Shown here: in pieces, positions 36,001 to 39,000 of the stretch
How positions within the stretch are numbered: position 1 is the first letter of the stretch
Layout: the number at the start of each line of letters is the position of its first letter
Origin: Escherichia coli
Lineage (GTDB): Bacteria > Pseudomonadota > Gammaproteobacteria > Enterobacterales > Enterobacteriaceae
NCBI RefSeq assembly: GCF_003018255.1
Contig: NZ_CP027440.1
Reading direction: 5' to 3' (one strand)
Length of the DNA stretch: 64,000 bases
Program-made: the position numbers

Positions 36001-39000
36001 GTTCCCGAATGAGCACTTCCTGTGAAGCGGCTGGATGCCCGAACGATTCAGGATTTTTTCAACCCGCGTCTGGTGATTCTGGCGGTTAACTTCCTCGCTG
36101 CGCTTCCGGCCCTCAGCCAGTTGCCATTCCAGCCACTCGTCGGTCGTCCGGAACGGTGCTGTAACGTGCGGTGGAACCAGACGGCGCACCCGTTCAAGAA
36201 TCCCTCCTGTCGAAATGTTTTTCATGGCTGATTACCCCCTGAAACCCGGCGGAATTTCGGTGTCCGGTTCAGAAATGTGATTCACGCAACGCAGGCTGAC
36301 TGCGCCAGCCTTCGGCAGCGCCCACGGATTTTCGAAATTCCTGTTCGGGCCAAAAAACGTCGATGCCTGCTGAACAAATTCAGTTCCCACTTTCCCGGTA
36401 GCCTCCAGGTATCTTGCGTAACGCCTCACGCCATCCAGCACGACATCCGGTGACACCCCTTCGCGTAATCTGGCCCTCCAGGCATTGAACGCGGATTTCT
36501 TCGGGTTTGACCCTGCCCGATGCGGATATTCACGCCAGACCCGTTCGAACACGTCAGGATAATCAACTCGTCCCGCAGACGGTCCCGGCATCGCCCGGGT
36601 TAACCCAATCGGCTTCCCGCTCATCGCGGAATCGGCTTCAGGCTGCTGCGGTTGGTGTTGTTGCTCCGGTTCGACGTGCAGCACCTGCTGCACACAACGC
36701 CCGGAATCTGCTTCCGGTGTCATGCCAGCTGGTCCTGGACGTTCAGTCAGAACGGGACAAGAATCCACCAGTGGGTCCGTGGCGATTTTTTCGCCATGGA
36801 CCAGAAGGGTTTTATCTCTTTCCTGTTCCTGTTCCTGTTCTTGTTCTTGGCTTGAAAGGGGCTCTGAAGGGGCTTCAATTTTCCGACATGATTCACGTCT
36901 GACATCCAGGTGGAAATCATCCTTATATCTATCATAAAAGGATGATAAAAAAGGATTTTCCAGCAACGCGGAATATTCATTTCTTACCCCAGCACAACGG
37001 TTATCGCCTGGTTTCAGCGCTTCACCAACCTGCCATGCTGCCATTTCATGCACCCATACAACCTCAGAATCATGGTCATAGCTGCAAAAACCAGCCTCGC
37101 AAGCCATTTGAAGCCCCTTAGAAGCCCCTTCAGGATCAAGTCCGGTTTCGTGAGCAATGTACAAAACAGGCAGGTAATAAAGGCCCAGCATATTGGAATG
37201 AGGCGAGGTCATCATATACAACGCCACTACCATACATTCCGGACCAGACTTCCTTAGTTTTCGCCCTGTATCGCCTAACCAGAACTGAGGTGAAATTGTT
37301 GCGTAATTACGCATAGTCCCCTCGCATACAAGATTTACTCCATACCGCAGACGGTCCCGGTATCTCCCGGGTTAACCCAATCGGCTTCAGGCTGCTGCGG
37401 TTGGTGTGACTGCACATTGGTGTGACTGCACATCTTCACAGACGGTCCCGGTATCTCCGGGTTAACCCAATCGGCTTCAGGCTGCTGCGGTTGGTGTTGT
37501 TGCTGGCGAAATTCTTCCAGATGTGGCAGAATTATTCCCGTGTATTGCTCCATGCCCTGCCTGAATATCAAATATTCATCAGGATTTGCTCAGAACGTCC
37601 GGCCCCAACCGGACGTTTTTTATTTGCATGAACGTTAATGGCATGGTTGAACGCCCGGCTGATCGGACTGATATCAGATGCCATCTGGAACGCACATAAA
37701 ATCGCCGCAATGTATCGCCAGTCGGTACGACTGACCTTCGATTCATGGCAGCCAATCATCTTCGCCAGTCCCCTTTGCGTCAGAGCTGACAGGTTGATAA
37801 GTAAATCCGTTTCAGCGCGATCGATATCGCGCTGCGACAGTTTGCTGTAACTTGTTTGTGACATTTCTTATGATTCCAAATAGTGAATAGTTAGTTGAAA
37901 GGTATGCGTGGAAACGCATATGGCCTTAGTTGGTCAGATATCTTGGGGCTCGCTTTTCAGCGACGTAGGACGAATGTCCATTGTGAAAAGAGCAGTGTTA
38001 ATTGAGCTTATCGTTGACGATCAGGATTCGCTACATTGCGTAACCATTCGGCGGTAAATTTGCCATCAGATGCATTGGCGAGAATTTCCGAATAGTTGGT
38101 TTTCATCGTGTATTCGGTGCGAGGTAACGCTCCGTTTTTAACCCACTTATGAATTGCAACATTTGACAACCCGCATAAACGGGCAGCGACTGTTTGACCA
38201 CCAACAGCTTTTACTGCGAATTGTATCGGATTCATACTGCTATCCATTAATTTAGTTAACTTCGAGTTAATGTTAACTATTAGCTGACAGTTATGTCAAC
38301 TATGTTTGATAATTAACGTATGGTTAAAAAAGATGAACTAAAAGAAGCGTTCTCAAAGAGACTACTACAGGCATTATTAGATGCAGGTGTGGGCGGACGC
38401 GGTCAGGCTAAGCGGATTCAGAATGCAATGAAACTGCGAGGCATTGATATCTCTGAACCGGGGATCTGGAAATGGCTTAATTCTGCATCAATTCCAGAAA
38501 AAACAAGTATTTTGGCACTTAGTGACTGGCTTTCCGTGAAGCCGGAGTGGTTGGAGTATGGCAGTAACGAGCCATCCGTAAAACAGCGACCTTCTATTCC
38601 AAACGAATCAGAATGGGGTTCCCTTGAAACTTGGGACAGAAATACACCACTACGAGATGATGAAGTTGAGGTGCCATATCTGAAAGACATTGAGTTTGCA
38701 TGCGGTGACGGAAGAGTTCATTGCGAAGATCATAATGGTTTTAAATTACGCTTCTCAAAAGCAACCTTGCGCCGTGTCGGAGCTAACAGTGATGGTTCTG
38801 GTGTGCTTTGTTTTCCGGCTACTGGTGATAGCATGGAACCCGTGATACCAGATGGAACAACAATCGCAGTAGACACAAACAACAAACGTATTGTTGACGG
38901 CAAACTCTACGCCATCGCACAGCCTGGTGTCGGTGATGAAAAACTGAAGCGTATAAAGCTATTGTACAGACGCCCCGGTGGAAAACTAATCATACGCAGT

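Follow-up and report, generated by a model that had tools for sequence, protein, structure and literature searches.

Linker-derived repeats between cII and the replication initiator gene of a Stx-phage module in Escherichia coli are probably a recombination scar turned VNTR

Why should a segment of a phage replication initiator gene recur twice outside that gene, in the short spacer that separates it from cII? The question is raised by a stretch of 64,000 nucleotides from Escherichia coli (NCBI RefSeq assembly GCF_003018255.1, contig NZ_CP027440.1), here called the window, in which a first-pass annotation had reported a ~60-bp segment of a gene named "O" recurring twice upstream of the gene start and had proposed either displaced, iteron-like origin-type binding sites or scars of illegitimate recombination. 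All genes of the region are on the minus strand, in the order cII, spacer, initiator, and DnaC-like loader, with the initiator as the first gene after cII. Over positions 36400-37650 the window and Shigella phage 75/02 share 99.4% identity, and the two have the same order of cI, cro, cII, a hypothetical ORF, initiator, DnaC-like loader, and DUF1627. Phage 75/02 is given as the representative of the Stx-phage replication type Eru4 in the passages on that type (Fagerlund et al. 2022, PMC8951638), and the window is, as judged by its sequence, an "Eru4"-type Stx-phage replication module. The passages of that paper on the type and on repeats mention no repeats, origin, or ORF between cII and the initiator, and neither these repeats nor the Eru4 origin was described in the literature found by term searches.

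The features of the region are collected in the table. The cII-like gene is annotated as CII in 75/02, POCJ13, and other relatives, and the identical gene in relatives matches Pfam PF05269. The oop-like terminator aligns with the lambda oop terminator region, and the unique segment that follows the cII stop (U50) is collinear, at ~55% identity, with the lambda cII-O junction, which is the site of p_o. A putative p_o on the plus strand would have its -35 element (TGGCGA) at 37504-37509 and its -10 element (CAGAAT) at 37528-37533; a scan for consensus promoters and terminators returned no promoter in the spacer and the oop-like terminator as the sole terminator. An Rfam scan of 35000-40000 produced two sub-threshold matches only, neither of them in the repeats, and the AgvB match at 37563-37621 was weak, sub-threshold, and not significant. 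The linker copies come after U50 in every locus fetched. No other genomic context was found for U50, as all 33 of 33 IMG/VR matches share the window context, GTDB species representatives gave no match, and E. coli genomes show the window context alone. At the other end of the spacer, the unique 30-nt segment has no homology to the upstream region of the L006-type allele.

The initiator is composed of an N-domain of unclassified family, an EQ/PEAD low-complexity linker, and a DnaT-like C-terminal domain. Its best profile match is described as a "DnaD-like helicase loader", and its C-terminal ~80 aa (residues about 280-360) resemble the C-domain of DnaT, with matches to the structures 2RU8 and 6AEP (E 0.0035-0.01). 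A Pfam-A scan found no domain at E ≤ 0.001, hence no Phage_rep_O (PF04492) match, which rules out membership of the lambda O family; the name "O" suits the position of the gene and its helicase-loader partner but not its family. A stretch of 35 nt of the linker segment is common, at ~94% identity, to roughly 1,180 E. coli genomes, and the initiator genes that share it carry different N-domains (MRNYA/MRDYA-type and MANAW-type), so that the linker is a mosaic joint at which N- and C-modules meet. The linker is itself variable. The window type is related to the L006 type by a compensated frameshift in which the DNA motifs are kept, and the linker grows by a 24-nt unit in L095 and also by hexamers; among relatives the initiator has 358, 360, 362, or 366 aa. 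The number of hexamer units differs between 75/02, POCJ13, STEC1589, and PhiR5_2, and this copy-number polymorphism supports the earlier suggestion that the EQ-encoding tract is a slippage site, although its composition is (CTGTTC)3 followed by (TTGTTC)1 and TTG, not (CTGTTC)3(TTGTTC)2 as first described.

Three copies of one linker segment were found at the locus by repeat search and pairwise alignment, and their coordinates were refined by hand on a sequence ruler. The resident copy, A, corresponds to codons about 217-247 of the initiator gene (QQHQPQQPEADSAMSGKPIGLTRAMPGPSAG) and contains two GAAGCCGATT repeats 23 nt apart, while the upstream copies, B and C, are placed between cII and the initiator gene; A lies 772 nt from B, and the B-C spacing is 90 nt. 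Relative to B and C, copy A has two substitutions and 23 extra nt bounded by the 10-nt direct repeat GAAGCCGATT. B and C are identical over 41 nt, their differences being one 1-nt indel in the CCCGGG run and three mismatches at one edge. The 3′ edge of copy B (GTCTGCGG) and the 5′ edge of copy C (AGCAACAACACCAACC) match copy A, and B is separated from C by a 16-bp tandem whose unit includes the 5′ edge of B. Within 35800-38200, exact direct repeats reach 41 nt, compared to a maximum of 16 nt and a mean of 10.7 nt in 300 first-order Markov simulations, so these repeats are far beyond chance. The twofold recurrence of the segment reported earlier is therefore real and the 16-bp tandem duplication is present; the dyad cccgg-N5-ccggg is also present, but with the N5 spacing in copy C only and N6 in A and B.

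Table. Features of the cII-initiator region, by position in the window
Feature	Position	Strand	Basis or remarks
Replication initiator/organiser gene, 360 aa	36232..37314	-	phrog_1701, E 5e-150
Copy A (resident linker segment), 93 nt	36573-36665		inside initiator gene linker; repeat search, alignment
GAACAG/GAACAA hexamer tract encoding (EQ)n linker	36820..36849 (limits approximate)	-	repeat search; polymorphic
Second AAGGGGCTT 11-mer cluster, 2 copies	36856..36878	+	inverted relative to first cluster
First AAGGGGCTT 11-bp cluster, 2 tandem copies	37110..37131	-	repeat search; candidate iterons, apart from copies A-C
Unique 30-nt segment	37315..37344	-	ORF stop TAA 37335-37337 and initiator Shine-Dalgarno GAGGGG; read from sequence
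78-aa ORF, TTG start (72 aa from ATG 37553)	37335..37571	-	"hypothetical protein" in relatives; phrog_2751, unknown function
Copy B (upstream), 69 nt	37345-37413		without 23-nt unit; CCCGG-N6-CCGGG; repeat search, alignment
16-bp tandem, 2 units of TTGGTGTGACTGCACA (minus strand TGTGCAGTCACACCAA)	37401-37432		repeat search
Filler, 6 nt	37433-37438		precedes 16-bp tandem (minus-strand order)
Copy C (upstream), 66 nt	37439-37504		without 23-nt unit; CCCGG-N5-CCGGG; repeat search, alignment
Unique ~60-nt segment (U50)	37505..37567	.	after cII stop; 5′ part of oop-like transcript; putative p_o
cII-like activator gene, 98 aa	37568..37864	-	phrog_191 CII-like, E 5e-33
Oop-like intrinsic terminator	37592..37619	+	11-bp stem and T-run; antisense, overlaps cII 3′ end

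Comparison of more than 110 related loci (about 115) showed that the spacer is hypervariable, with 1, 2, or 3 copies of the segment and 0, 1, 2, or 5 of the 16-bp units. Indels of 1, 3, and 23 bp also occur, and the alleles measure 174/175, 195, 249, 265, 288, 313, and 355 nt, with one further allele of 3 x 113 nt; the B-C spacing in other alleles is 74, 113, or 138 nt. The spacer is carried by 80 complete E. coli genomes, and the 60 loci listed from these comprise 48 two-copy, 8 one-copy, and 2 three-copy forms and 2 deletion forms, while the IMG/VR loci comprise 29 two-copy and 4 one-copy forms. Unit number varies while the flanks stay 99-100% identical, and direct repeats bound every length difference. 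Length changes between direct repeats are the signature that slippage or unequal exchange would leave, and the alleles show that the spacer behaves like a minisatellite: a 90- or 113-nt unit occurs one to three times, a 16-nt unit occurs 0, 1, 2, or 5 times, and, between 10-nt direct repeats, a 23-nt unit is found in some cases and missing in others. Tandem unit number in the spacer differs in near-identical genomes, as it does in a VNTR. No locus without an upstream copy was found among the about 115 loci, and the two-copy form predominates. This constant presence and two-copy majority could reflect selection; to be set against selection, a single copy has no slippage partner for its loss and the family is shallow, with at most 5% divergence.

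The source of the upstream copies can be read from their variants. Features diagnostic of the window-type linker (GCGATGAGCGGG and GGGTTAACCCGGG) are present in the upstream copies and those of the L006 type are not, which shows that the copies derive from the resident linker allele. In allele L023, a lineage-specific change of GAAGCC to GATGCC is carried by the internal copy and by each of the three upstream copies, a pattern consistent with gene conversion, while L031/35/37/44 have GATGCC in the internal copy and GAAGCC in the upstream copies; strict concerted evolution of upstream and internal copies, as seen in L023, is contradicted by these alleles. Locus L022 is a clean recombinant of an upstream copy and copy A that has lost the N-domain and is annotated as a pseudogene; the deletion product is out of frame and represents a single independent instance in one strain lineage. 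This recombinant shows that the upstream copies can serve as substrates for homologous recombination with the internal copy and can delete the initiator N-domain.

In our view the upstream copies are probably non-coding, ectopic copies of the slippage-prone initiator linker, a recombination scar that has turned into a VNTR. Of the two origins first proposed for the repeats, scars of illegitimate recombination fit the evidence, the arrangement in relatives being variable and not conserved. The copies are found where the replication module has its left junction, immediately downstream of the oop-like promoter region, and the first of them may have arisen there by illegitimate or templated recombination as that module was joined to a lambda-like cII-oop module. 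Replication slippage, unequal crossing-over, and gene conversion would account for the later changes. The element would play no part in the function of the origin, and the 72/78-aa ORF would be a by-product of stop-free, linker-derived sequence. Mosaic junctions in lambdoid phages reportedly arise, in the model of Hendrix, Juhala, and Clark, by illegitimate recombination followed by homologous exchange, with short homologies at the boundaries. Like such scars, the element coincides with a module junction (other cII alleles are homologous up to the cII stop, and other alleles of the same initiator from the ATG onward) and consists of a displaced gene fragment without conserved coding capacity; unlike them, it is a copy of the adjacent gene's own segment, forms direct repeats that flank the N-domain, and is now a multi-unit VNTR. 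It likewise resembles the bacterial and prophage VNTR loci used in MLVA typing in that its 90/113-nt and 16-nt tandem units vary in near-identical genomes, with a nearby GAACAG hexamer tract that is also variable, but differs from the usual VNTR in that its unit comes from a dispersed coding copy 770 bp away, recombination with which can destroy the gene.

The alternative closest to the first-pass annotation is that the upstream copies are auxiliary, iteron-like, cis-acting replication sites, at which the initiator, its DnaT-like C-domain, or a host factor would bind GAAGCCGATT or CCCGG-N6-CCGGG both in the linker and upstream, so that initiator would be looped or titrated around an origin region coding for the N-domain. 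There are precedents: lambda ori is inside the O linker, and SPP1 G38P has binding boxes within its own gene and also at another site. Every locus compared has one or more upstream copies, all copies in L023 share one variant, and the decamer GAAGCNGATT occurs five times within 900 bp (at 36607, 36630, 36705, 37379, and 37469), three times in the linker in two reading frames and once in each upstream copy, with only two 1-mismatch copies elsewhere in the 64 kb. The use of two frames, together with the compensated linker frameshift that keeps the motifs, leaves room for a role at the DNA level. Window-wide, however, the decamer count is not above chance (7 found, 5.1 expected), and GAAGCCGATT and GAAGGGGCTTC are not enriched, so that local clustering alone is notable. 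Lambda ori (NC_001416 39034-39118) likewise has repeated DNA in a phage initiator gene that comes after cII, in the linker joining the N-domain to the C-domain. The lambda repeats, however, are four iterons of 18 bp spaced about 20-24 bp apart; they are specific to the N-domain of O, and an AT-rich region comes next. Iterons are expected as at least three short repeats of about 17-22 bp in regular helical phasing, and the units here are 66-93 nt, two of them outside the gene and 90 nt apart. No AT-rich unwinding region adjoins the copies (GC is 52-58% across 37330-37510), phages that are otherwise nearly identical differ in copy number (1 to 3) and in spacing (74 to 138 nt), and internal and upstream copies are mismatched in L031/35/37/44. 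The linker DNA also occurs with unrelated N-domains of the MRNYA and MANAW types and so does not co-vary with the presumed DNA-binding domain of the initiator. The dyad stem is broken without compensation in the linker alleles L050/51, L057/75, and L097, which rules out the dyad as a conserved hairpin or binding site. Folding of the spacer RNA was no better than that of shuffled sequences (z -0.26 for the minus strand and -0.92 for the plus strand), ruling out a structured RNA or attenuator, and Rfam gave no match in 37315-37560 at E ≤ 1. We regard auxiliary replication sites as unlikely, and "origin-type" was not a good description of these repeats.

The ORF between cII and the initiator might instead encode a real small protein of 42-102 aa. 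The N-terminal 28 aa would be constant, the tail would vary with the repeats and mimic the initiator linker, and the protein might serve as a decoy, for instance, or modulate the turnover of the initiator, with copy number as the means of tuning. The start of the ORF is 14 nt past the cII stop with an AGG 6 nt before the ATG, the ORF is annotated in all deposited relatives and forms phrog_2751, its first 28 residues are encoded by all alleles, and in two of three frames it stays open to no more than 20 nt from the initiator start or overlaps it. The allelic products nonetheless vary in length (42, 46, 51, 58, 62, 72, 76, 88, and 102 aa), and their tails are read in three frames (GDTGTVCGME, EIPGPSAVWSKSCMRGDYA, or RYRDRL) that shift with 1-, 16-, and 23-nt indels. 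The 78-aa form in the window contains QPQQPEADWVNP twice. Codons 1-28 show 0 synonymous and at least 8 non-synonymous nucleotide changes, whereas changes in cII of the same loci are mostly synonymous (e.g., 12 synonymous to 5 non-synonymous; Fisher p = 0.0096, a small sample). A conserved gene would be expected to keep frame and length and to show a synonymous excess. Because the frame is not kept and the changes in the constant codons are all non-synonymous, the ORF is judged, from these allele comparisons, not to be a conserved protein-coding gene, in agreement with its first description as spurious. The constant N-terminal codons, with the start of the 72-aa form (ATG 37553-37551) within U50, overlap the oop-like transcript and promoter region, which could alone explain their presence. 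The ORF has no domain matches, and its homologues are confined to this group of E. coli and Shigella phages. A long ancestral protein that starts with MEQYTGIILPHLEEF was dropped as a candidate when none was found among 5.8 billion protein clusters. A functional small protein is accordingly very unlikely. More improbable still is that the direct repeats are kept as a recombination cassette, through which the N-domain and the candidate iterons would be looped out or swapped between phages with a common linker sequence. The linker is the mosaic joint described above and the L022 loop-out product exists, but that product is a dead gene without an N-domain, swapping would require just the single internal linker together with homology of any kind upstream, neither a circular nor a reintegrated intermediate was found, and at the level of selection the idea is speculation. 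Taken in its broad form, the proposal that the linker-derived copies are functional DNA, either as initiator or primosome loading sites that tune replication or as a loop-out and exchange switch of origin specificity, seems to us quite unlikely. In the loading-site version the binder would be the DnaT-like C-domain of the initiator or a host primosome factor, and, if true, copy number would tune the replication of Eru4-type Stx phages and so toxin-gene dosage after induction.

Better candidates for iterons may be the AAGGGGCTT 11-mers inside the initiator gene, which are more iteron-like than the reported repeats. The second cluster adjoins the AT-richest stretch of the gene (36880-36970, 33-37% GC), and in the L006/L008 allele it has three copies in the opposite (direct) orientation. 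A search for the Eru4 origin is thus pointed away from the reported repeats and toward the two 11-mer clusters and the adjoining AT-rich stretch. If the upstream copies are indeed a recombination scar turned VNTR, the "hypothetical protein" annotated in dozens of E. coli prophages, as well as in 75/02 and POCJ13, is probably no gene, the spacer and the EQ hexamer tract would be length-polymorphic markers for the widespread Stx1-associated (Eru4) phages, and the direct repeats would offer a ready route to inactivation of the prophage replication gene.

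A repeat search recovered the three copies of the initiator-linker segment described in the first-pass annotation, one inside the 360-aa replication initiator gene (copy A) and two in the spacer between cII and that gene (copies B and C), together with the 16-bp tandem, and the limits of the copies were refined from the sequence and pairwise alignment. The longest stretch repeated exactly measures 41 nt, whereas no repeat exceeded 16 nt across 300 Markov simulations. Copies B and C have 41 identical bases in common and diverge at a single base of the CCCGGG run and along one edge, while copy A is distinguished from both by two substitutions and by 23 extra bases flanked by two GAAGCCGATT copies. 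The N5 spacing annotated for the dyad was found in copy C only, copies A and B having CCCGG-N6-CCGGG.

Features of the replication region in the window and cII-initiator spacer alleles at related loci (L handles)
Feature	Position	Strand	Length	Description
Copy A	36573-36665		93 nt	
Copy B	37345-37413		69 nt	
Copy C	37439-37504		66 nt	
16-bp tandem units	37401-37416 and 37417-37432			
cI	38320-39090	plus		
cro-like	38008-38247	minus		
cII	37568-37864	minus		
72/78-aa ORF	37335-37553/37571	minus		
Replication initiator	36232-37314	minus	360 aa	
DnaC-like loader	35701-36225	minus		
11-bp repeat (core AAGGGGCTT), first cluster	37110-37131			two tandem copies, in N-domain coding region
11-bp repeat, second cluster	36856-36878			two copies, inverted relative to first, adjoining EQ hexamers
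oop-like terminator	37592-37619	plus		clear in terminator scan
L013 spacer			195 nt	one copy with 23-nt unit
L005, L020/21 spacer			175 nt	one copy without 23-nt unit
L016/17 spacer			174 nt	one copy without 23-nt unit
L014/15 spacer			249 nt	two copies, one 16-nt unit
Window and L001-4 spacer			265 nt	two copies, two 16-nt units
L019 spacer			313 nt	two copies, five 16-nt units
L018 spacer			288 nt	two copies, 23-nt unit kept in first
L009-12 spacer			355 nt	three copies
L023 spacer			113-nt period	three copies, each with 23-nt unit; slightly diverged lineage

Over 36400-37650, identity to the window is 99.4% for Shigella phage 75/02 Stx and 99.3% for POCJ13, with phiSTEC1589-Stx1c and PhiR5_2 also close. 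Eru4, a class of replication region in Stx phages, has 75/02 as its representative, and the passages of the Eru4 paper found by term search mention neither repeats nor an origin (PMC8951638). The same two-copy spacer with an Eru4-type module is present in E. coli chromosomes of the O104:H4 outbreak lineage (e.g., NZ_CP011331.1, 1845746-1846056).

Spacers, delimited by the cII stop codon and the initiator ATG, were compared using the DNA of loci behind the clusters of ORF-related proteins, of which there are only ten, all from E. coli and 42-102 aa long. The spacer is carried by 80 complete E. coli genomes; among the 60 listed there are 48 two-copy, 8 one-copy and 2 three-copy spacers, plus 2 deletion forms from a single strain lineage. 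IMG/VR loci have two copies in 29 cases and one in 4. The spacer alleles are found alongside three or more distinct cI/cro immunity modules. Every length change falls between direct repeats, the pattern that replication slippage or unequal exchange would be expected to produce.

The 72/78-aa ORF does carry QPQQPEADWVNP twice, and its description as spurious was borne out. Alleles differ in its tail, which reads GDTGTVCGME, EIPGPSAVWSKSCMRGDYA or RYRDRL, because 16-, 23- and 1-nt indels shift the frame, and the 28 codons common to all alleles contain at least eight non-synonymous nucleotide changes and no synonymous ones. In cII from the same loci, change is mostly synonymous (e.g., 12 to 5), a difference that is significant in this small sample (Fisher p = 0.0096) and agrees in direction with the frame data, indicating that the ORF is not a conserved gene.

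The name "O" given to the initiator suits its O-like position and not its sequence, which lacks the Pfam domain; a Pfam scan of the protein returned no domain at all. PHROG matches are to phrog_1701 for the protein and to several "replication initiation / primosomal protein" families for its C-terminal part. Residues ~280-360 (window 36232-36470) match the DnaT C-terminal domain in the solved structures 2RU8 and 6AEP (E 0.0035-0.01), as the C-domain does the NCBIfam DnaT tail (E 0.0067). This resemblance to DnaT, a host primosomal protein whose C-domain binds ssDNA, would fit a DnaT-like hand-off to the adjacent DnaC-like loader. The loader gene in the window has an amber codon (CAG>TAG at Gln175, 35701-35703, minus) just past the DEIGM Walker-B region, which leaves a product of 174 aa instead of 246; CAG stands at this position in 75/02, and all other relatives encode the full 246 aa. 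This reflects either a defective replication module in this copy or a sequencing error.

Alignment with other E. coli prophage alleles indicated a modular initiator, with an exchangeable N-domain (MRNYA/MRDYA in the window and alleles L006/L008, an unrelated MANAW "replisome organizer" type in L007), a low-complexity linker of EQ and PEADS repeats that contains copy A, and a conserved C-domain. A 35-nt match to copy A lies inside such genes in ~1,180 of 5,426 E. coli genomes. Compared with the widely distributed L006-type allele (L006 2440-2530), the window linker (36573-36640) has a 1-nt deletion followed ~55 nt on by a 1-nt insertion, a compensated frameshift yielding SAMSGKPIGLTRAMPGPSAGR in the window type against SAIQREADRVVPESTGQSVGR in the L006 type. 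With 20 residues read in another frame and the DNA motifs kept, the linker peptide is evidently unconstrained. The proposal that the EQ tract is a slippage site held up, as the number of GAACAG/GAACAA units (~36820-36849) differs among the four closest phages, which accounts for relatives having initiators of 358, 360, 362 and 366 aa. In another initiator allele (L095, IMG/VR), the linker contains a 24-nt tandem duplication (GAAGCCGATTCCGCCATTCAGCGG twice) upstream of the VDYPD anchor, so the PEADS-coding unit is itself slippage-prone.

In their diagnostic features the upstream copies agree with the window-type linker and not with the L006 type, and their source is therefore this gene lineage. 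At locus L022 on the E. coli SW071619 chromosome (2432052-2432463), and likewise in the sister strain SW07163, an upstream copy is fused to copy A, following the upstream type (without the 23-nt unit) up to GGGTTAACCCGGG and the A type (GCGATGCC) thereafter. The L022 initiator has lost its entire N-domain and is a frameshifted pseudogene "missing N-terminus" in RefSeq. L022 is thus a natural deletion product of recombination between an upstream copy and the internal one. The L023 lineage has its own GAAGCC>GATGCC change in the three upstream copies and the internal copy alike, which fits gene conversion; such co-variation is not obligatory, since L031/35/37/44 combine an internal GATGCC with upstream GAAGCC. 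The window-type origin of the upstream copies, the length changes between direct repeats and the L022 recombinant all support the suggestion that the repeats are scars of illegitimate recombination.

The alternative first suggested, that the repeats are iteron-like origin sites, does not fit the evidence, as copy number and spacing vary, the copies (52-58% GC) have no AT-rich neighbour and their sequence accompanies unrelated N-domains. A role in cis for the copies could account for the occurrence of GAAGCNGATT five times in 900 bp in two reading frames, for the retention of DNA motifs across the linker frameshift and for the presence of an upstream copy in every allele among the loci examined, but none of these points is decisive in a shallow family with at most 5% divergence, in which a single copy, having no tandem partner, has no route to its loss. 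Among 35 IMG/VR linker alleles, L050/51, L057/75 and L097 have an uncompensated break in the CCCGG/CCGGG stem; an Rfam search of the spacer gave no match, and RNA folding of either strand was no better than that of shuffles.

The 11-bp repeats inside the initiator gene are a better fit to iterons than the reported repeats and are candidates for the true iterons/origin. Their two clusters are 229 nt apart, and the second abuts the part of the gene richest in AT (36880-36970, 33-37% GC), within which lies a 13-bp inverted repeat (36916-36946). The L006/L008 allele instead carries three copies at the second cluster, oriented the other way, and for that reason encodes EGAFKGL there rather than EAPSEPL; across alleles, the DNA motif is kept and the peptide is not. 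Genes with the MANAW-type N-domain lack the motif.

The segment 37505-37567, which overlaps the 28 shared ORF codons, is collinear with the lambda cII-O junction (~55% identity), which holds the 5′ part of oop and the promoter p_o. An oop-like antisense element (37563-37621, plus) has a strong terminator overlapping the 3′ end of cII, with only a sub-threshold AgvB match in Rfam (21.8 bits; gathering score, 56). By analogy with lambda, a putative p_o, not picked up by a consensus promoter scan, may comprise TGGCGA (37504-37509) and CAGAAT (37528-37533). If this placement is right, the first linker copy would start directly after the last base needed by the cII/oop module, exactly where a module junction would be expected.

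Mosaic-junction debris and VNTRs are well-known general phenomena; this instance appears to be undescribed, no earlier account of the repeats having been found in the literature searched. The best explanation is probably a recombination scar copied out of the initiator's own linker at the junction of the cII/oop and replication modules, which has since become a minisatellite, presumably through replication slippage or unequal exchange, and whose upstream copies can recombine with the initiator gene.
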